Below, piece by piece: positions 3,694 to 46,543 of a stretch of DNA of 64,000 bases. The stretch is taken from IMG/VR virus record IMGVR_UViG_3300045911_000143, positions 14,355 through 78,354 of that record. One strand, 5' to 3'. This DNA is from a virus. The first letter of the stretch is position 1, and the number at the start of each line of letters is the position of its first letter. The notes beneath the pieces are model-generated. The model did no database searches. It was given only the letters and a program-made list of their open reading frames with translations, and was not told the DNA's origin. The translations under genes and the position numbers were made by a program.

Positions 3694-4227
3694 ATGATAG
3701 ATATACCAGTTATTCGAAATCCTTTAACATATGAATCTAGATCATTTACATTATTATTGATGGATATAATTTTTAGCGAATGTGAAATATACTCAGATAT
3801 TAGATATCCCGGTTCGTACTATATAGATGCTGTAGAAAAATTAAGAGAAGGTTTTTTTAAAGTCAATTCTTCCGATGAAGAATGGTCAAAATTTGAAAGA
3901 TACGAAAATGCTTTATCAAACGAAAAAATTCAAATAACCAGAGAAATGGATTATAATCTTTGTAAGAGATTCTATGAGCTATACAATCCATTCGGCAGCA
4001 TCACGGATAGAGTCAAAAGTTTATTTACAAGTATAAAGATTCTACATGATGAATTTCCATTTGTAAGAGAAATGATGATTTATGGTTTGATAAAATGTAT
4101 TCAAAACTTTGACTACATAAGAACACAGAGAATTTATAGACACTATAAAGATATATTTGGTAAATCATATAGTGAAATTACAGTTGATGATTATAGTAAT
4201 TTAAAAAATATAAAAATAAATATTTAA
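3694..4227 (+). CDS. hypothetical protein
   Basis: GGAG RBS, 177 aa ORF. Confidence 0.6.
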   Translation: MIDIPVIRNPLTYESRSFTLLLMDIIFSECEIYSDIRYPGSYYIDAVEKLREGFFKVNSSDEEWSKFERYENALSNEKIQITREMDYNLCKRFYELYNPFGSITDRVKSLFTSIKILHDEFPFVREMMIYGLIKCIQNFDYIRTQRIYRHYKDIFGKSYSEITVDDYSNLKNIKINI

Positions 4228-4240
4228 AATATGGAAATAT

Positions 4241-4885
4241 ATGAAAGTTGACTTTGGTAATAGAAAATGGAACGGTAATGGTAGCATATGGTATAAAGAC
4301 CAAGTGATGATGCAAAGCGAACTGATATATCCAGTTTTTGAAGAATTTTTTAAGATTAATAAGTTTGATAAAATGATAGAGATAGGCACGGCATATGCAG
4401 GATTTTCTTTATTCTTGGAAGATTTAACAAAAAAAGATGGAACAAAAATAATAAGTTATGATATTATGCCTATAGAAAATATGCCGTTTCATGAAGCGTC
4501 ACCAAACAAAAGAATTGAAAAATCAAAATATGTATTAGAGTCATCCATTGACTTTAGGATAAAAAATACATACACTCAAGAAGTTCAGCAAGAAATCAAA
4601 GATATTATCCATTCATCTGGTCGATGTGCAGTATTCTGTGATGGCGGAAATAAGCCTAAAGAGTTAAATATTTTTGCTAATATTATAAAGTCAGGAGACT
4701 TTATTTTTGCACATGATTATGCACAATCGCCTGAATACTATTCAGAAAATATTTTAAATAAATATTGGCGTTGGTCTGATTGTTTTTATAGTGATATAAA
4801 AGACTCTGTTGAAAGCAATAATATAAAATTATATTATCCAGAATATTTTGAAAAAGTTGCATGGTTTTGTGGAATTAAAGAATGA
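4241..4885 (+). CDS. class I SAM-dependent methyltransferase (Methyltransf_24/CmcI-like)
   Basis: IEIGTAYAG motif I, FCDGG, GDFIFAHD. Confidence 0.75.
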   Translation: MKVDFGNRKWNGNGSIWYKDQVMMQSELIYPVFEEFFKINKFDKMIEIGTAYAGFSLFLEDLTKKDGTKIISYDIMPIENMPFHEASPNKRIEKSKYVLESSIDFRIKNTYTQEVQQEIKDIIHSSGRCAVFCDGGNKPKELNIFANIIKSGDFIFAHDYAQSPEYYSENILNKYWRWSDCFYSDIKDSVESNNIKLYYPEYFEKVAWFCGIKE

Positions 4886-5877
4886 AAACAATAAGAATAA
4901 CAAGAGCAAATTTTCCAGAAAATGGAATGTTTTCATGGATGAATTATTTTAAATGGATATTAGAAAAGAAATATAATGTAATAATTGATTCAAAAACCCC
5001 TGATATTGTTTTTTGGACTAACTTCCATAATGAGGGGAAGAATATAGATCATTATACAAAAGACTTAAATCACACTATAGATAAGTTCCCAAATGCAAAA
5101 AAAATCTTTATAACTGGTGAATATTTTAATCATAGTGCATACTCAAATGTTTTAGCTTCAGGCGAAGATCATTATGCGCTTGGATTCTGTGATGCAATGG
5201 AACATGAGTCTAGATATTTGAGATTTCCAACTTATGTACTTGATACTTGGGTGCTTTATGATGAGTCTAGAATATTTGATGAACCTTTCTCTTGGTTGAC
5301 TAAACCAAAAGACCCCGAGAAAATGTTCAATAAATTTAAGCGTTTCTGCTCTATTGTTCAAGCCAGTGATAATCCAGTGCGTGGTAAGCTGTTTGATTTA
5401 CTTATAAAATACAAACCTATTAAAAGTTCTGGCCCTTGGCGACCAACTGTAGAACCAAACGAGTTGCCAGAAAAATATTTGTACTTACAACCGGAATACA
5501 TTGGTCGTGTAGATGGATTAACATATAGAAGTAAAATTGAATTCTTCAAAGATTGTAAATTTAATATAGCGTTTCAATTCACTGATACTCCATGTTTAAC
5601 ACAAGAGAAGATTGTACATGCATTTGCAGCAGGAACTATTCCTATATTTCATGGTAATAATAGAATATCTGAAGACTTTAATCCTGAAAGTTTTATCAAT
5701 GCTCACAGTTTTAATTCTTTTGAAGAGTTGACGGAGTATGTTATAAAAGTAGATCAGGATGATAATTTATGTAAGAAAATATTGGCAGCCCCATATTGTC
5801 ATAATAATACTTTACCTGAATACTATTCTTCTGAAAGATTGCTATCATTTTTCGAAAAGGTGATAAATGCAATATAA
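4882..5877 (+). CDS. alpha-1,3-fucosyltransferase-like glycosyltransferase (GT10)
   Basis: K.EF...CKFNIAF...TQEKI.HAF.AGTIPIF.G GT10 motif; PDIVF. Confidence 0.85.
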   Translation: MKTIRITRANFPENGMFSWMNYFKWILEKKYNVIIDSKTPDIVFWTNFHNEGKNIDHYTKDLNHTIDKFPNAKKIFITGEYFNHSAYSNVLASGEDHYALGFCDAMEHESRYLRFPTYVLDTWVLYDESRIFDEPFSWLTKPKDPEKMFNKFKRFCSIVQASDNPVRGKLFDLLIKYKPIKSSGPWRPTVEPNELPEKYLYLQPEYIGRVDGLTYRSKIEFFKDCKFNIAFQFTDTPCLTQEKIVHAFAAGTIPIFHGNNRISEDFNPESFINAHSFNSFEELTEYVIKVDQDDNLCKKILAAPYCHNNTLPEYYSSERLLSFFEKVINAI

Positions 5878-10287: not shown

Positions 10288-10782
10288 ATGTTTAAGTATA
10301 TATTAGGTCTAATCATGATCTTAGTTGCTGGAAGTGTAAATGCTGGTCTACCGGTGTGTACGTCTGGTGCTTTTTTTGAACCTGAAAGAGCAGGTGAAGG
10401 AGTTTTATTGACTGTTTCTAATGAACTCATCACTGGAGGTCTTTTTACATATGACTACGTAAATGGATTTGTTACAAACACAGTACCAGTAAAAACTTGG
10501 TATAGTTTGGGTCCAGTGGTCAATGATGGTACCGTAAATACAGTGGTTTTACCAGTTTATGAAACCAAAGCTTTAGGACCAGCAAGCGGACCATTAGTTG
10601 TAGAGACTCGTGAAGTTGGTTTTGCTGAATTTACTTTTGTTGATACACAAACATTAAGATTTAGCTATAATATTGGTCAATTCTTATATCCAACTTGTGA
10701 TTTCGGTCCACTGCCATTCTGGTGCCAGAGACGAGATGTTATTCTTAAGAGAGCTTCTGCAGTTCTTCCACAGTGCTTGTGA
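10288..10782 (+). CDS. exported protein with signal peptide
   Basis: Hydrophobic N-terminus ending VNA; TATAAATA and AAGGAG upstream. Confidence 0.7.
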   Translation: MFKYILGLIMILVAGSVNAGLPVCTSGAFFEPERAGEGVLLTVSNELITGGLFTYDYVNGFVTNTVPVKTWYSLGPVVNDGTVNTVVLPVYETKALGPASGPLVVETREVGFAEFTFVDTQTLRFSYNIGQFLYPTCDFGPLPFWCQRRDVILKRASAVLPQCL

Positions 10783-10810
10783 TTGACATATCTGTTATTT
10801 TTGTGATATA

Positions 10811-10838
10811 AAAACCCCTCAACCCGAGGGGTTTTTTA
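10811..10838 (+). terminator. intrinsic terminator
   Basis: aaaacccctc-aaccc-gaggggtttttt hairpin plus U tract. Confidence 0.75.
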
Positions 10839-10841
10839 TTC

Positions 10842-11195
10842 ATGGCAGGAATTATAAAACTATTTGAATCTTCTAACTTTATACAAAAATATGTCGTAGA
10901 AAATACGATAAGAATTAACAACTATATCGGAACTCCATCATATGAAGTAAGCATCGATATAAATGATATTGAAGAAAAATGCATTTACAATATCATCCTA
11001 GATCATACTAGAATAAATGGTAAAATATATCTTACTTGTTACTTGCATATTGCTAATACTGTCATACTTCTTTATAATGACAATCCAAAGCATTGGGTTG
11101 ATCCTATCTTGAATGAAAAATTTAAAAATTTAGAATTTGTTATTCAACAATTCAACCGCTTTAACATCACTAAGAAAGGATTAAGCAATGTTTAA
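10842..11195 (+). CDS. hypothetical protein
   Basis: ORF track. Confidence 0.5.
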   Translation: MAGIIKLFESSNFIQKYVVENTIRINNYIGTPSYEVSIDINDIEEKCIYNIILDHTRINGKIYLTCYLHIANTVILLYNDNPKHWVDPILNEKFKNLEFVIQQFNRFNITKKGLSNV

Positions 11196-11640
11196 CAACT
11201 ATAGGATGTATTTTTTAGGAAATATGTATATCTCCCAAATACAACATGGTATACAGGCCGCACATGTAATTGCGGAAATGTTTACAAAATACAAAAATAC
11301 ATCTTCTATAGAATCGGAAATACTTGATGATTGGGCTAGAAAATATAAAACTATAATTGTATTAAATGGTGGTTATCAATCGGAATTGGAATCTGCCTTA
11401 ATTAAAATACAAAATTCTTCAGTACTCCGTAAGCTTCCTTATGCTTATTTTAGAGAGGAACAAACTGCCCTGAACGGAGCATTAACCTGTGTAGGTATTG
11501 TATTACCAGAGATATTCTATCAAGTTGATTCTGAAAAGATTAATGAGTTTCAATTTAATATGCACAAGATGTTTGGAACAGAAGAATCAGAAAAAATTAC
11601 AAATTTTGTAAAATTTATACAATCTAAGAGGTTAGCATGA
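11188..11640 (+). CDS. peptidyl-tRNA hydrolase 2-like protein
   Basis: IQAAH, W...KTIIVL, F.E...LNGALT.VG pattern. Confidence 0.55.
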
Positions 11641-12683
11641 GAATAGAAGAAGATGTAAAGTTAGATTTTAGTGATGTTTTAATTAGGCCAAAGAGAAGTT
11701 CACTTTCTTCAAGAAAAGATGTTTCATTGAATAGAACTTTTAAGATGAAACATAGACCTGATAAGTCTATTACCGGAGTTCCTATCATAGCCGCTAACAT
11801 GGATGGTGTTGGTACATTCGAGATGGCTGATGCTTTTATGAAGCACGAAGCATTTGTCGCAGTTACTAAACATTACTCATTATCAGATTTGACATCATTT
11901 TATAATCGTGATCTTGTTACCGTGGATAGGGTCTTCTATTCTGTCGGCTTGAATGATCTTGACTTACAGAAACTCGATCTATTCTTGAATGATAATAATT
12001 TACAGCCATATGTAAGAGATAATATAATGCTTTGTTTAGATGTTGCTAATGGTTATTCTCAAAAATTTATTGATTTTATTTTGAGAATACGTGAAAAATA
12101 TAATCCTCGTGCGATCATGGCTGGAAATGTTGTTACTGCTGAAATGACAGAAGAATTGATTCTTTCCGGTGCCGATATTGTAAAAATTGGTATTGGTCCC
12201 GGTTCAGCATGTACCACCAGAAGAGTTGCAGGTGTTGGTTACCCGCAATTATCGGCGATTATAGAATGCGCTGATGCGGCACATGGTTTGGGTGGGCTTG
12301 TATGTTCAGACGGTGGTTGTACGGTCCCCGGTGACTTCTCGAAGGCTTTTGGGGCTGGTGCAGACTTCATCATGGCTGGAGGAATATTTGCTGGTCACGA
12401 TCAAGGTGGCGGTGAAGTTATAGATGGTAAAGTTCAATTCTATGGTATGAGTTCTGACACTGCCATGAAAAAACATCATGGTGGAGTTGCTGAATATCGT
12501 GCTTCGGAAGGAAGAACTGTTTTTGTCCCCTATAAGGGTGATGTTAATAACACTCTTAGTGAAATTCTAGGAGGTGTTCGTAGTTGTATGACATACATCG
12601 GTGCTGCATCTTTAAAGGAGATTTCTAAGAGATGTACATTTGTAAGGGTTAATAGACAATTAAATACAATTTTTGATAAATGA
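11637..12683 (+). CDS. guaC: GMP reductase
   Basis: [53 protein letters not shown]. Confidence 0.95.
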
Positions 12684-12690
12684 GGATTAT

Positions 12691-13038
12691 ATGAATACAG
12701 AAAATATTTTTTGTTATAGATTATTGAATGGGCAAGATATTATTGGTAAATTTAATAGAGAGCAAGATGGTAAGATATACCTAGACAATGCGTTAGCGTA
12801 TGTTATTAGTGAAGGGAAGACCGATAATGGACAACCAGCTTTGTCCTTTGCTTTTGTCCCACTATCATTTGCATCTACTAGAAATCCAGAAGAAGTTAGA
12901 TATGGAATTTCTATTGAGTTAGAAAAGACTGCCATATGTTTTAAGTATGATTTAGCAAAAGATTATATTGAAGCTTATCTTCAACAAATTTCTATAGTTC
13001 AAAAAATCTCTAAACCCGGACTTATAATTCCCGGATAA
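12691..13038 (+). CDS. Sm-like fold hypothetical protein
   Basis: RLLNGQDIIG N-terminus and LIIP C-terminus typical of T4-like phage family; GAGGA RBS. Confidence 0.5.
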   Translation: MNTENIFCYRLLNGQDIIGKFNREQDGKIYLDNALAYVISEGKTDNGQPALSFAFVPLSFASTRNPEEVRYGISIELEKTAICFKYDLAKDYIEAYLQQISIVQKISKPGLIIPG

Positions 13039-13932: not shown

Positions 13933-14541
13933 ATGGAACTTTTTAAGAGAATTTTAATTGAGGAAGGCGAAAGGGCAGCAGACGCTCAAGTTAAACATGC
14001 CATTTCTGTTATTAACAAAATATATAATGAATGGAAAAAAACAAAGAGAAGAATTAACGCTGTTGATATTATAACAACATCGATCAATAAAATTTCTAAT
14101 ATATCTCCAGCACTATTACCTTTCATTCACGATGCTGCAAAATTGAAATTAGTAATAATTATAACTAGATGTATGGATTCACCACCTTGGGAAGATATAT
14201 CAAGACTAGAAAAAAGATATAAAAAACTATTCCCATTAATAAAATTACTACAGAACATAACTTCTACATCTGAAAGTGGCGGTAGTTTGAGAGAAGTTAT
14301 AATGACAAGACTTAGTGCCAATATTTGTTATAATGACAAGACTTGTAAAACTTTTGTTGGATATGAACCGATAATATCAAAAAATTATTTGAAGTATCTG
14401 TTAGGAACAAAACAGGTAGAGAAAGCATATAGAATGCAATCTCTACCATTACCCGATGATTTTGAAAGATTGATTGAAACTTTAAAAATAAATCACGAAA
14501 AGGCAAAATCAAAGTTCGAAAAACAAACTTCCGTTGAATAG
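13933..14541 (+). CDS. hypothetical late protein
   Basis: CATAAATA at 13903; N-terminal ILIEE. Confidence 0.6.
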   Translation: MELFKRILIEEGERAADAQVKHAISVINKIYNEWKKTKRRINAVDIITTSINKISNISPALLPFIHDAAKLKLVIIITRCMDSPPWEDISRLEKRYKKLFPLIKLLQNITSTSESGGSLREVIMTRLSANICYNDKTCKTFVGYEPIISKNYLKYLLGTKQVEKAYRMQSLPLPDDFERLIETLKINHEKAKSKFEKQTSVE

Positions 14542-24181: not shown

Positions 24182-25048
24182 TCAACCCTCCCCTTCCCCC
24201 GCGTCAGGCTTGCGGTTCAGGATGTAGTCTGCCGCCTTTTGCGCCCTTGCCGCTGCGGTGGCGAACAAATGCGGATCGCTTCGCAGCGCGCGGGACCATC
24301 CGTCAAGGTACGCCGCAGTATTCTCAATCACCTTGGGGGCAATCCCGGCTTCGGCACTCAGGAAACATGCTGCCAGTTCCGCCACAAGTTCCTCGCGGCT
24401 GTATTCGTGGGAACCGAAATAGGAAGGCTGATCGATTTCTTTTCGGTTCAAGCGAGACTTGTGGCCGGTGCTATGGGCAAGTTCATGGAACAGAGTAGCA
24501 TAGAAACTTTCCGCAGAATCGAAAGTCTCACGATGCGGTATATTGATTTTGTCAATCGTTGGGATGTAACATGCACGCTCCCCGCCGTAGCGGATTTCGG
24601 GGCGGTTCGGCATACCATTGACAATGGCCTCACATGCGTCCAGAACCGGGACAGCCTCGCGGGCCTCATGGGGCGGAAGTTCGATCCCGTCAACTTGCGC
24701 AATGTTGTAAACGAGGAAAAATCTGAAAATGGGGAAGGTTGATTCCTCGCCACTTTCATCGGTACGCTTCACCCAGTTCCAAAAATAGACCGGAGTATGC
24801 GCCTTTTCCTCGCCAGCCTTGATTGTTCCCCCGGCAGCCTTGATCTGATTGTAGGTCAGCCAGACCGATTCGGGATAACCCTTCATGACTTGTACCATGT
24901 TAAGCATGAAGGTGTTGATTCCCCGGTAGGTCCGTCCGCTGATGTTACGCGGGGGGTCCGATGCCTTCCACGGCTTCAACCACGGGGCCGTACCATTTTC
25001 GATCATCTTAAGAATCTGATCGGTCAGAATCTGATAGACTTTCGACAT
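24182..25048 (-). CDS. ardC: ArdC-family ssDNA-binding antirestriction protein
   Basis: APW.KPW, Y.GIN, W.TY.Q, FHELAHSTGH..RL.R, YS.EELVAE, AAY...W. Confidence 0.9.
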   Translation of the reverse strand: MSKVYQILTDQILKMIENGTAPWLKPWKASDPPRNISGRTYRGINTFMLNMVQVMKGYPESVWLTYNQIKAAGGTIKAGEEKAHTPVYFWNWVKRTDESGEESTFPIFRFFLVYNIAQVDGIELPPHEAREAVPVLDACEAIVNGMPNRPEIRYGGERACYIPTIDKINIPHRETFDSAESFYATLFHELAHSTGHKSRLNRKEIDQPSYFGSHEYSREELVAELAACFLSAEAGIAPKVIENTAAYLDGWSRALRSDPHLFATAAARAQKAADYILNRKPDAGEGEG

Positions 25049-25308
25049 AGCGTCGTCTCCGTTGATGGTGAAATCATTATCCGATATTAGCCTTTGGTTG
25101 TCAAGTGTCAATCGGCTATTTTTTGATCGTTTAAAGGCTTGACTATCAGATTGGATGATGTATAATGCTTTACATGGTTAGGGCGGTAACGACAGCCCCG
25201 ATCACAGCCCCGAAACGGGAACTTTGGCAACCTAGATTAATTGAGGGTAGGATGGTTTACCCCCGCGACGGCCCGTAAGAAAAATTGATGGTTGTAAACC
25301 AAACGAGC

Positions 25309-38690: not shown

Positions 38691-38850
38691 GTTCAATTTA
38701 TCCTTTATTTTCAATATGTTACATCAAGTTTTTGACAAATTAGATTATTCCTCCAACAAGGAGGAATAAAATAACAATTATGCCTCCCTCTGTCAATAGA
38801 GGTCAAATTTGTAAATGTCGAGACTTATTTATTTACTATATAAGGTTAAT

Positions 38851-38945
38851 GTTCACTGGTGGGACTCGAACCCACATCGGAAGACTTTGTTCTCCCATGA
38901 CATAACCTAAACTAAGGTTATCGCTTACCTTTTGCTACAGTGAAC
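38851..38945 (-). ncRNA. atypical tRNA-like RNA
   Basis: 8-bp GTTCACTG/CAGTGAAC stem, canonical T arm, aberrant anticodon arm, extra arm, no CCA. Confidence 0.55.
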
Positions 38946-42661: not shown

Positions 42662-44223
42662 ATTATTATTCTGTAAAGTTGATTGTCAGACTCTTAGCAT
42701 ACTTCATTTCTGGTGTAATATCAATAGGGCGATTATGAATCGCAATACACTTTTTACCTTTCTCGTCCCGATAATTGATCACAAAAATTGTATGATCTCT
42801 GAGATCAACCATCTCAACATTGTTGTAAGTTTTAACTTCATCGGTGTTGAGAGTAACAACAACAGTTTTGTCATTCATTCAGATACACTCCGTCAGAAGG
42901 ATTCAGCATACCATCTTCATATGCGATTTCAAGATGATGCTGGGGCTTGAAATTTTGATAGTAAACTTCGTCTACTCGAATGACGCCGCCACACTCATTG
43001 ACATATTCTACAATGTCACGAACATTCTCAATTTTATCTACACCGCCACGATGTTCATTGTAATATGCATTAACTTCACAGTTTGTTTCGACATGTTTTG
43101 CCCCCAATGTATGCAAATGCTCTGCAACACTATTGTCACCATATTCTTTGGGAATAAATGCTTGAATTGTATACATATTTTTCCTTAAATGAGAAAGTAA
43201 ACTCGACCAAAGATCAATACTACAGAAACTAAAGCCCCGAGGCCGAGCAAAACGGGGAAAATTTCTTGTATAAGATTTTTCATATTTTTCATTTGTGGCT
43301 ATTCTCCATAAAGGCTTATTTAGCCACAATCCTCTAGAGTGATGTTACTAGAATTTTTTCTTTCGTCTAAACAAATAGTCTATTAGAAGAAAAAACCAAC
43401 CTAAACCGAAAATAAACAACGGAAGTACAGCAGGTAGAAGATTGGTCCACACATTAGCTATGGTGAAAACCAAGCCTCCAATAAAAATCATGGAGGCTAT
43501 GGTTCGAAGCATATCACCTTTCATCCAAATACTCGAATGTTGGGAGTACCAGTCTCCACCTCACCTACAACAAGCTTGATATGATTATCAGACAGCATAA
43601 TCTTACCAAAAGTCTTCTTAGTATCTGAGAGATAGACAGTACCTTTCGGAGTTACACTAATCATAGAGACATCAATATTAAATGCTTCAAGAATTGGATT
43701 TGAAATCATAGTTAACTCCTAGAGTAGACTATTATTTATCAAACTTCAACCTCACGACCACGAGAATCTAGAATGAAGACTGTGGGGCTATTACGATGAC
43801 GAACGAGTTCCTTGTGATATTCAAGACTAGTCACCGTAGGGCCTTCAGGGAGGTTAATCTCCTTCTTAGGGTTAAAGGAATAATAAGTGCCATCACTAGC
43901 AAAAGTATAGTTCTGATTCATAGATGTTTCACTCTTGTTAAGATTAATTAATGGTTTCTTGGAAGGTGCCTACCTTTTGTGTCATACGGCTGGTAGCGTG
44001 GTAGGTGAATGCAAAACAGGTAAAACCAGCATTTACCTTTTTGTCAATAAAATCATCGAGTTGCGTTTCATCGACAAAAACTGTGTCACGATTAAGGAGC
44101 GGTTTACTGATCAAATCGCTCAAGGTCATTCCACTATCCTTAATGCTAAGAACTAGATACATCTTCATATTTAAGCGAGAGTAGTTAAACAGGGTTTTAG
44201 TATAGGTGAGGATTGCGGAAGTG

Positions 44224-45384
44224 TCAAGCCTTCCCTTCCGCAATCTTAGACAATGCCATCTTACCAGCCCACGTACCGGGAGCCTGAATTTCTTCAATAC
44301 TTTCAAAGACCATCGGACGACCACGGATGCGCGACATAAACTCACCAGTCTTACCCATCTTAGGCATACCAATATCAACCTTGGTACCGTATTCCGGCCA
44401 CGATGCGCCTTCACGAGTACCAATCAGATAGGCAGGCTCACCCACCGGCTTGATAAGAACTGAATCTTGCCCATACATCTTACCAAGTTCGACAAGATCA
44501 CGTTCTAGATTATTTTTAGTATCATTCGGCTTGCGAGCAACAAACAGCGAGCGTTCAGATACTTCTGCCATATCTTTAAACTGTGTTTCCTTATCAGTTA
44601 CTTCAAGGGAAGGATTGGCCTTACGTTCCTTACGACGACGCAGAACATCCTCAATTTCAGAAGCATTATTCTTATCATATCCTTCAATGTAAGTTCCGGC
44701 AACTTCTGTAACATCGTAACCAAGTTTAATCAATTTGGCACGAAGTTGGCGATGGAGTCGCATGTTTTCATCAAAATTACGCTCGTTACGAAACGCAGAA
44801 ATGATTCCAATATCATTACGAGCCATTTTGGCGTGAAGGCGTGCAAGACCCGATTCAACAAGATCGACTTCCATATTAGGAAGGGCAGCCATTTCAACAA
44901 TACGTGCGATGCGGTTAGACATTGCATTCTCCGATTCATTCAAGTGACCAGCGATGATATCATTGGCCTCGTAAGATTTCAAATCGTCAGTACTGACCAC
45001 GTTTATCTTTATATCAGCATACTTATCCATTACACCACTCTTAACAAAGGAGCGAACACCAACTTGAATATTATTTTTTGTAAGATTATTTAATTGCCAG
45101 ACTGTAAATGACCAATGGTTTCTATATGCACGGATTCTGATCCATCCACGCTTCAATGCATTCACAATAATTAATTCTCTAGCTTCACCTTCCTGACCAA
45201 CCTTTTCACCATATTCCTTATGAATATCGTTAATGAACTGGCTTGTGGTTCCAAATTTTTCAGGATTAGAGATAATATCTTGAATATGGGTTGTGTTGAC
45301 TCTTAAGATTTCACCAGTAGGAGCGATCCATGCTCCTGCTAGGAATCCTCGTCCAAAGGTGTTCTTCAAATCTTGTAGCTTCAT
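44224..45384 (-). CDS. two-domain late protein with C-terminal T3-SAMase (SAM lyase)-like domain
   Basis: IISAFR...EN...HR.L, G.Y.E, E.S, QDSVL match the T3 0.3 motif order (from memory); TATAAATA at 45402-45409. Confidence 0.55.
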   Translation of the reverse strand: MKLQDLKNTFGRGFLAGAWIAPTGEILRVNTTHIQDIISNPEKFGTTSQFINDIHKEYGEKVGQEGEARELIIVNALKRGWIRIRAYRNHWSFTVWQLNNLTKNNIQVGVRSFVKSGVMDKYADIKINVVSTDDLKSYEANDIIAGHLNESENAMSNRIARIVEMAALPNMEVDLVESGLARLHAKMARNDIGIISAFRNERNFDENMRLHRQLRAKLIKLGYDVTEVAGTYIEGYDKNNASEIEDVLRRRKERKANPSLEVTDKETQFKDMAEVSERSLFVARKPNDTKNNLERDLVELGKMYGQDSVLIKPVGEPAYLIGTREGASWPEYGTKVDIGMPKMGKTGEFMSRIRGRPMVFESIEEIQAPGTWAGKMALSKIAEGKA

Positions 45385-45428
45385 AATAATCCTTTTATTA
45401 TTATTTATATGCCCCCTTTACGAAGCGA

Positions 45429-46082
45429 CTAGATTGTTTCCCTTTTGTCTTTGTAGAACACATGCCGCTGGATGGATGCCACTCTAACATACCGGCGAGC
45501 CTTGGACCAATTTGGACTCACATATGAAGCATGATAGTGAGTAACATTTTTTCCGAGGAAGTTTTCGACATTGCCGCTCAAAACTTCTACTGCAATTGTG
45601 TGAGCAGTATTCCACGCAATCAATTCCTTTTTGTTTTTCAGAGATGGAATATCCGGCTTACCATCGCATGTCCAAGAAAACTGACACTGATTTTTAAGAC
45701 GCTTTCCATCGCTCATGCGACCTTGGAAAACAACATCACAGATCGTATCGGGATAAAATTTACTAGCAACACGATTCATTGTGACGAGGGCAACAGCCTG
45801 CATAGCCTCTACCGATTGATTCCGAGCCTCGAAAAAAATGTTCTGCTGCAAACAGAACAAATCATCTTCCGAATATTCTACAAAGTCAGTTTCTTCTGGA
45901 AGAATAGTTTCGATCCCTTCCGGTTGAAGAATAACCGGAGTTGGCAACACATTTGCTTGATTGCTGTAAGCGATATAAAAACTGGAAGGGTTCACCCCCA
46001 AAAGAACAAGCGAAATCGCAGCCATCGTAATTACAGCAAAAACGCGGACTGCAAGGTGCATGAACCGATCAAGGGAATCCAT
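45429..46082 (-). CDS. cell wall hydrolase (SleB/Hydrolase_2)
   Basis: CL..NI.FEAR, NRV....FP.TIC.VV.Q, CQFSW, THYHA.YV.P.W, H.FY. Confidence 0.9.
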   Translation of the reverse strand: MDSLDRFMHLAVRVFAVITMAAISLVLLGVNPSSFYIAYSNQANVLPTPVILQPEGIETILPEETDFVEYSEDDLFCLQQNIFFEARNQSVEAMQAVALVTMNRVASKFYPDTICDVVFQGRMSDGKRLKNQCQFSWTCDGKPDIPSLKNKKELIAWNTAHTIAVEVLSGNVENFLGKNVTHYHASYVSPNWSKARRYVRVASIQRHVFYKDKRETI

Positions 46083-46138
46083 TTCAATCTACCGTGGTGG
46101 TTAAGGTGGGACTAGAATAGAACGGAACTGATCAGTTG

Positions 46139-46543
46139 TCAATAGACCTTAAATTTGTTATGTTTCCAATATTTTATATTACCTTCTGTTATAGGATTTG
46201 AAAGGTGCATCTGTAAATTCAGGCGAAGTGCATTTTCGACACACTTCTTATTTAAGCCTTTGTTTCTAAAGGATTTTTGAGTGTATGAATGGATGTATCT
46301 ATCTTTACCCATTTGCATGTCACCATCACCGTTGAAGAAATAACGGCTAAAGATGATAGTCCATGAACGAGCAACACCATCAATTTCAGCAATAGAAAGA
46401 ATTAATTTAGACTCTGGATTGTTCTTATAATCCCTGAAACAGGGCCACATCATACCATCTCTAAAATGAATCTTTTGTAATTGGGAGATGACACGCGGGG
46501 GGATGAACTGGCCGGGACGATAAACAACAAATTTGGTGTTCAT
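46139..46543 (-). CDS. GNAT-like acetyltransferase
   Basis: YT...FRNKGL acetyl-CoA-binding-like motif. Confidence 0.4.
   Translation of the reverse strand: MNTKFVVYRPGQFIPPRVISQLQKIHFRDGMMWPCFRDYKNNPESKLILSIAEIDGVARSWTIIFSRYFFNGDGDMQMGKDRYIHSYTQKSFRNKGLNKKCVENALRLNLQMHLSNPITEGNIKYWKHNKFKVY

Follow-up and report, generated by a model that had tools for sequence, protein, structure and literature searches.

P0001, a protein of 386 amino acids (aa) encoded on the minus strand of the IMG/VR virus record IMGVR_UViG_3300045911_000143, almost certainly carries a T3-type S-adenosylmethionine (SAM) lyase in its C-terminal half, joined to a widespread N-terminal domain. The gene was studied in a window of 64,000 nucleotides (nt), corresponding to positions 14,355 to 78,354 of the record, and all window coordinates are counted from the first letter of that stretch. 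We read P0001 as a late-expressed two-domain SAM lyase protein that probably serves as a virion-delivered counter-defense enzyme; taken as a whole, this reading is evenly poised, and its parts are graded separately below. Under it, P0001 would be taken up by the capsid as the head assembles and would then enter the next host with the DNA, as would gp6 of the cyanophage S-CREM2. The predicted lyase domain would most likely cleave SAM to methylthioadenosine and homoserine lactone, and the resulting SAM depletion would disarm SAM-dependent defenses, such as type I restriction-modification and bacteriophage exclusion (BREX). An earlier annotation made from the letters of the window, hereafter the sequence-only reading, had treated this delivery route as not known to be described; entry of a SAM hydrolase with the DNA, as part of the virion, was, however, proposed in 2023 (PMC10665884). 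The route is thus already in the literature, and what is new is the two-domain architecture with its partner domain, together with the correlation between a leader type and presence in the virion.

The gene, its domains and the surrounding signals are as follows (pLDDT, predicted value of the local distance difference test; pTM, predicted template modeling score):

44224-45384, minus strand: open reading frame (ORF) of P0001, 386 aa, stop codon included, read from the sequence; the translated part is 44227-45384
45402-45409, minus strand: TATAAATA, the box of a T4-type late promoter, 17 nt ahead of the ATG
45390-45394, minus strand: Shine-Dalgarno sequence AAGGA, 5 nt before the ATG, between TATAAATA and the ATG
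45337-45384, minus strand: N-terminal leader, residues 1-16 (MKLQDLKNTFGRGFLA), a flexible helix before the conserved W19 (pLDDT 55-75)
44944-45336, minus strand: N-domain, residues 17-147 (alignment A3; model with pLDDT 90 and pTM 0.82; no Pfam family)
44854-44943, minus strand: inter-domain linker, residues 148-177, with LNE-S, IVE and LVE-S (sequence and alignments)
44227-44853, minus strand: predicted SAM lyase domain, residues 178-386, with G230, Y232, E277 and Q306-D307-S308 (PF23780, T3 profile match, Foldseek, VIA and invariant columns)
44566-44658, minus strand: insertion of 31 residues (243-273) within the loop that joins G-x-Y to the catalytic Glu (alignment A1; modeled as a helix)
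46114-46142, minus strand: sigma70-like promoter TTGACA-17-TATTCT, 5' of the neighboring cell-wall hydrolase gene (sequence)

The SAM lyase domain and its substrate

SAM lyases are known as early anti-restriction and anti-BREX enzymes of T3-like podoviruses. The Pfam profile for this family (PF23780, S-AdoMet_lyase) scored 37 bits on residues 194-243 of P0001 (E 3.9e-9), above its cut-off of 28. Only profile positions 2-52 are spanned, because the 31-residue insertion at residues 243-273 breaks the alignment; in homologs that lack the insertion (32-57% identity to P0001), profile positions 2-128/133 are matched. The insertion is confined to P0001 and its 87%-identical relative P0002, being absent already from homologs at 55-57% identity (alignment A1, comprising 16 homologs).

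The strings to which the sequence-only reading had drawn attention all occur in the translation of the minus strand, which that reading had not specified, namely GIISAFRNERNFDENMRLHRQL (residues 193-214), AGTYIEG (229-235), SERSLFV (276-282) and LGKMYGQDSVLI (300-311). Its statement that the motifs of T3 gp0.3 recur here in the same order also proved correct: a profile built from 114 family members matched T3 SAM lyase (PDB 7OCK/8BB1) at E 5.6e-4, with AFR..N..R, G.Y.E, the catalytic Glu and QD(S/C)VL paired in that order. T3 SAM lyase was reached by the family profile only, a phmmer search of PDB sequences with the single P0001 protein yielding no match. In the profile alignment, E277 pairs with T3 E68 and Q306 with the Gln of T3 EQDCVL, in line with the earlier suggestion that the C-terminal half is T3-SAMase-like and retains the catalytic Glu and Gln.

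Structure comparison, which had been put forward as a check, gave the same answer. With the AlphaFold2 model (pLDDT 90), Foldseek retrieved T3 SAM lyase chain 8BB1_E at probability 1.0 and TMt 0.71, and an exhaustive VIA search placed 7OCK_L first, with a Z score of 13.8 and 136 of 152 residues aligned at an rmsd (root-mean-square deviation) of 3.1, followed in the second row by the Svi3-3 SAM lyase (6ZM9; Z 7.3). The fold in common with the solved SAM lyases is PII-like, and both the Pfam match and the fold match are well beyond chance. Furthermore, G230, E277 and Q306 are invariant among the 16 homologs and match the three strictly conserved residues of proven SAM lyases; in Svi3-3, Gly56, Glu69 and Gln104 are the sole residues of this kind, and Tyr58, to which Y232 corresponds, packs on the sulfonium (Guo et al., PMC7877911). 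On this combined sequence and model evidence, the assignment of residues 178-386 to the S-AdoMet_lyase family, T3 type, is almost certain.

Along with the shared fold and the common order of AFR..N..R, G-x-Y-x-E, catalytic Glu and Q-D-(S/C)-V-L, there are clear differences from T3 gp0.3 (7OCK, 8BB1, PF23780). The T3 enzyme is a single-domain early protein of 152 aa, whereas the lyase of P0001 forms the C-terminal half of 386 aa, stands behind a T4-type late promoter, is identical to T3 gp0.3 at only ~13-15% of positions, and has an extra N-terminal helix (ESGLARL), the 31-residue loop insertion and a C-terminal helix.

From the conserved motifs, the substrate is rather likely to be SAM, with the insertion as the principal argument against this part of the reading. 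In the SAM-AMP lyase of Clostridium botulinum, W64, T110, T112 and Y122 of the T-loop and B-loop bind the AMP moiety. SAM and SAM-AMP lyases have the fold and the catalytic Glu and Gln in common, and differ mainly in the loop before the catalytic Glu (PMC12255297). The insertion of P0001 lies in exactly that active-site-closing loop, which leaves the substrate less certain. The domain could therefore be a lyase for a SAM derivative such as SAM-AMP, the type III CRISPR signal, and act as an AcrIIIB4-like anti-CRISPR whose enlarged loop would fit the extra nucleotide. There is also a parallel in architecture, in that a phage SAM-AMP lyase is likewise fused to an unknown N-terminal domain and cleaves SAM-AMP, not SAM (PMC12255297); set beside P0001 by description only, that protein has a shorter N-domain, with its catalytic Glu at residue 158. 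Nevertheless, we consider a SAM-AMP lyase distinctly improbable: T3 SAM lyase is the closest relative by a wide margin in both structure and sequence, P0001 retains G-x-Y, the motif packing against the ribose and sulfonium of SAM, and the homologs at 55-57% identity that lack the insertion show that it does not define the family. No SAM-AMP lyase chain ranked among the Foldseek or VIA matches.

Catalysis might also be secondary. In this case, the domain would be a weak or inactive relative of SAM lyase that mainly binds and blocks a protein of the host, for example the SAM synthetase MetK, as in the second activity of T3 SAM lyase, with the N-domain adding a binding function. The best structural matches are indeed T3 SAM lyase chains from complexes with MetK (7OCK, 8BB1), and T3 E68Q retains 20-30% activity, so that catalysis is not the whole story in T3. 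The full conservation of G, Y, E and Q-D-S over hundreds of divergent family members, however, argues for selection on catalysis and makes this alternative very improbable.

Probable late transcription and possible virion delivery

The sequence-only reading had called P0001 late-expressed and noted an exact TATAAATA upstream. The box is present 17 nt before the ATG, the coding strand reading gcaTATAAATAataataaaAGGAttatt-ATG at this point, and ORF 2289-2846 has an identical TATAAATA...AAAAGGATTA arrangement. The number of TATAAATA copies in the contig is at expectation (12 versus ~14); their placement is not, with 6 of the 12 ending 5-40 nt upstream of an ORF start versus 3.3% expected (p ~9e-7). 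Syntenic orthologs are found near RNA ligase 1 in two other phages whose rIIA proteins are 34-41% identical to that of the window phage: one ortholog (G001) has ~35% protein identity, and the other (G002) is in fragments. The box is kept in both, 28 nt (G001) and 22 nt (G002) upstream. On those two contigs, 14 of 170 and 25 of 382 genes, respectively, have TATAAATA 21-39 nt upstream; among them are unannotated ORFs, the largest of 3,396 aa, and the gene directly preceding that of a gp21-type protease. The nonrandom placement of the box and its conservation in the orthologs make late transcription credible, and we consider it quite probable, from these sequence features, that P0001 is transcribed from a T4-type late promoter.

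The fragmented ortholog, on a 270-kilobase (kb) contig (G002:C1:29675-30693, locus L095), consists of a 68-aa and a 225-aa ORF, with TATAAATA and an MKLFELK leader intact; a frameshift, a pseudogene and an assembly error are all possible explanations of the split.

Because a late-made SAM lyase cannot protect the genome that encodes it, we favor delivery of P0001 with the virion. The strongest parallel comes from the Synechococcus phage S-CREM2 (OR473000, 175 kb), the virion proteome of which contains three non-structural "regulatory proteins", namely, the SAM hydrolase ORF6, the kinase ORF14 and the cytidylyltransferase ORF154, with the first of these, gp6, detected in virions by mass spectrometry at 26% coverage (PMC10665884). 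We find that gp6 belongs to the same family as the lyase domain of P0001 (PF23780, E 2.3e-19; 26% identity over residues 175-364), and that its gene has TATAAATA 21 nt upstream and encodes the leader MKDFDSFLEE, which looks like a capsid targeting signal (CTS). In a six-frame scan of the S-CREM2 genome (loci L163-L170), M[KR]x[FY]xxFLxE starts just three ORFs, and these are the three regulatory virion proteins: the SAM hydrolase (3837-5081), the kinase (10579-12846) and the cytidylyltransferase (124608-125468). The published description of S-CREM2 is silent on this common leader (PMC10665884). Beyond subfamily membership, gp6 and P0001 have in common an LxE-SSLSRL helix, an exact TATAAATA ~20 nt upstream, a short leader, a T4-like phage background, which in S-CREM2 includes a gp21-type protease, and a late kinase with the same kind of leader. 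They differ in that the lyase of gp6 is N-terminal and followed by a long Lys-rich tail, with no N-domain, and in that virion association is measured for gp6 and predicted for P0001.

In T4, a leader, MKTYQEFIAE, directs internal proteins to the prohead, and they are then cut after it (PMC8442874). Comparable leaders are frequent in the family of P0001. Thus, defining as CTS-like a protein start with M[KR] and [LIVMFY]xE ending at positions 7-12, 41% of the family members with an N-terminal extension qualify, compared with 3.5% of the contig's own ORFs (p 3e-9), and stand-alone lyase proteins often start with MKxFKEYLNE-SSLSR; the leader is absent from about half of the family. A gp21-type protease (PF03420, Peptidase_S77) is encoded in 7 of 10 contigs carrying family members and in S-CREM2. 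Like T4 IPI, IPII and IPIII, which are anti-defense cargo entering along with the DNA (a restriction enzyme is the target blocked by IPI), P0001 combines a late promoter with a short N-terminal leader. The T4 proteins, however, are basic, of small size, and undergo a single cut after the [LI]xE of the leader, whereas P0001 has 386 aa, is roughly neutral (57 K+R versus 54 D+E) and has no matching Glu.

A locus in another virus (L011 4732-9666, IMGVR_UViG_3300023276_000639) is reminiscent of the internal-protein locus of T4: within 5 kb, seven genes, one of them SAM lyase-like, encode leaders of a common type (MKDFKEYLEE, MRSFKETLQE, MKSFKQIIQD, MKTFTEILTE twice, MREFKKILTE and MKTFKEYMEE).

The window itself contains two paralogous kinase-like genes on the plus strand at 416-1752 (429-1100 and 1102-1752; 26% identical, with a DLHxxNIMYR...DP motif), one of which weakly matches the T7 gp0.7-type kinase in PHROG. 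An exact TATAAATA precedes them, and their leaders, MKIQTILE and MRIQKILE, share the pattern M-[KR]-[IL]-Q-x-[IL] with MKLQDLKN of P0001, which has Asn where the kinases have Glu. Two homologs of these genes are present in G002, one of them behind TATAAATA. By analogy with S-CREM2 gp14, they are candidates for virion-delivered kinases, and the combination of late kinases and a SAM lyase in the window mirrors the kinase and SAM lyase pair of S-CREM2. The link between leader and virion supports a general rule that these phages pre-load counter-defense and takeover enzymes, and the leader could be used as a sequence tag to predict injected phage proteins in metagenomes.

Several observations weigh against delivery of P0001 with the virion. 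Its leader, which begins with the MKLQDL stressed in the sequence-only reading, is devoid of the canonical [LI]xE and is unlike the MKxFxxFLxE type of S-CREM2, the gp6 leader being much nearer to the T4 CTS; some homologs have leaders of only 4-5 residues, too short for a signal. The homolog in the Campylobacter phage IBB_35, gene 5-9, is missing from the 38 virion proteins of that phage, as reported in a 2012 gel-based survey that also missed known structural proteins. The authors of the S-CREM2 study warn that gp6 could be a co-purifying contaminant (PMC10665884). As for the protease, a 95%-complete genome carrying a family member (G010) has no PF03420 protease, and the 78-kb contig encoding P0001 contains no head or tail genes, so that the phage's own protease is out of view. 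With regard to timing, TATAAATA precedes just 11 of 143 family genes in IMG/VR loci, which is still ~5x background, and there is no convincing terminator between the sigma70-like promoter at 46142-46114 and the P0001 ORF; early read-through from this promoter could make packaging unnecessary. The packaging proposed in the sequence-only reading therefore stands in part: it is supported by the virion-associated homolog with the same promoter and a CTS-like leader, and weakened by the leader of P0001 and the undetected IBB_35 homolog. By analogy with gp6, we regard packaging of P0001 itself as plausible, if slightly short of probable.

The same promoter evidence bears on an alternative in which P0001 is a SAM lyase of the cytoplasm and does not enter the virion at all. 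Read-through from the sigma70-like promoter would supply it early, with a second round of synthesis late; its action would be confined to the cell that makes it, where it could, for instance, hold SAM-dependent restriction, BREX or methylation in check for the whole of infection and on progeny DNA. In its favor, most stand-alone homologs are found among arrayed small genes of early type that lack TATAAATA, a sigma70 promoter is predicted for IBB_35 gene 5-9, which is also absent from the detected virion proteins, and the leader of P0001 has no [LI]xE. Conservation of the late promoter in the syntenic orthologs, the recovery of S-CREM2 gp6 from virions and the enrichment of CTS-like leaders in the family speak against this purely cytoplasmic alternative, which we consider rather unlikely.

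Release of the lyase by a protease acting at LNE, IVE and LVE between the domains had also been proposed. These motifs are present (residues 148, 162 and 175), and the proposal is unsupported: the number of [LI]xE sites in P0001 is at chance (6 versus 5.1 expected), the LNE-S and LVE-S motifs belong to the family and recur in stand-alone proteins, and IVE falls within a confidently modeled segment (residues 161-170), which is docked and has a pLDDT of 95 in the full-length model. In particular, LNE-S ends the N-domain in stand-alone proteins too. Where the lyase domain starts, the Glu of LVE-S hardly varies, even in stand-alone proteins in which it has just 4-5 residues before it; this Glu may belong to the fold and not mark a site of cleavage. 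Cleavage by the prohead protease between the domains, which lies outside the explanation that we favor, is improbable.

The N-domain and its proposed partnership with the lyase

The N-domain is a widespread uncharacterized domain with no fold assigned. Its residues W19, P22, H33, E65, R69, R83 and R85 are invariant or nearly so (alignment A3). Searches with this domain matched no Pfam family, gave no usable match in a protein atlas, and yielded no tblastn match at E 0.1 in the phage record collection; in the structural search, the best Z score was 6.1 (Stay-Green protein), accompanied by weak gelsolin-like rows, all below background.

The combination of the two domains is far from unique to P0001. 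When the whole of P0001 was searched against 1.84 billion representative proteins, 1,734 matches were returned at E <= 0.001, a total to which both domains contribute. Among the best 160 of the 1,734, the N-domain occurs without the lyase in 60 proteins and the lyase without the N-domain in 47, including, within these single-domain groups, a few proteins with tandem copies of one domain; 43 are fusions in the order found in P0001 (N-C) and 10 are fusions in the opposite order (C-N). Moreover, in five IMG/VR loci (L099, L100, L108, L115 and L125), stand-alone genes for the N-domain and the lyase are directly adjacent or overlapping, in either order. Such a Rosetta-stone pattern, with fusions in both orders and adjacent genes, argues for a functional partnership of the N-domain and the lyase. 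A complex prediction for the C-domain against the N-domain scored 0.00, which counts neither way, and a search for related loci of the closest homologs (P0002-P0005) in viral and metagenome contigs found nothing.

More speculatively, the N-domain and the lyase might constitute an unrecognized two-part anti-defense module of T4-like phages. A portable N-terminal leader would bring this module into capsids alongside kinases and other enzymes of host takeover, and it would be active within seconds of the start of infection. In that case, the N-domain would be a novel enzyme or inhibitor acting jointly with SAM depletion, for instance, against SAM synthesis or a SAM-dependent defense. We hold this proposal to be possible but on the unlikely side. 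The repeated fusion or adjacency of the N-domain to the lyase makes it a concrete experimental target.

The source phage and neighboring genes

The source phage is an uncultured large T4-like myovirus, represented by a contig of 78 kb that encodes rIIA, rIIB, RNA ligases 1 and 2, NrdAB and 18 tRNA genes. Among phage records, the matches that best cover its rIIA are 31-37% identical, and a megablast search of the phage record collection with the P0001 region gave no match. The contig DNA is present in hot-spring and microbial-mat metagenomes, which are possibly its source.

Adjoining P0001 upstream, on the minus strand at 45429-46082, is the cell-wall hydrolase gene, whose 217-aa product matches Pfam Hydrolase_2 (SleB type, E 2.6e-22) and has a hydrophobic N-terminal segment. 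At the other end of the gene, a near-consensus sigma70-type promoter, TTGACA-17-TATACT (11 of 12 matches; window 44199-44227, minus strand), overlaps the last codons of the SAM lyase and is directed at small downstream genes. A second counter-defense gene on the contig encodes a 309-aa protein (window 24182-25111, minus strand) that matches an anti-restriction family (phrog_7245, E 5.5e-74). Among the 18 tRNA genes in the window, ARAGORN reported a 96-nt tRNA-like gene beside tRNA-Met (38850-38945, minus strand), with an undetermined, two-base anticodon (ta).

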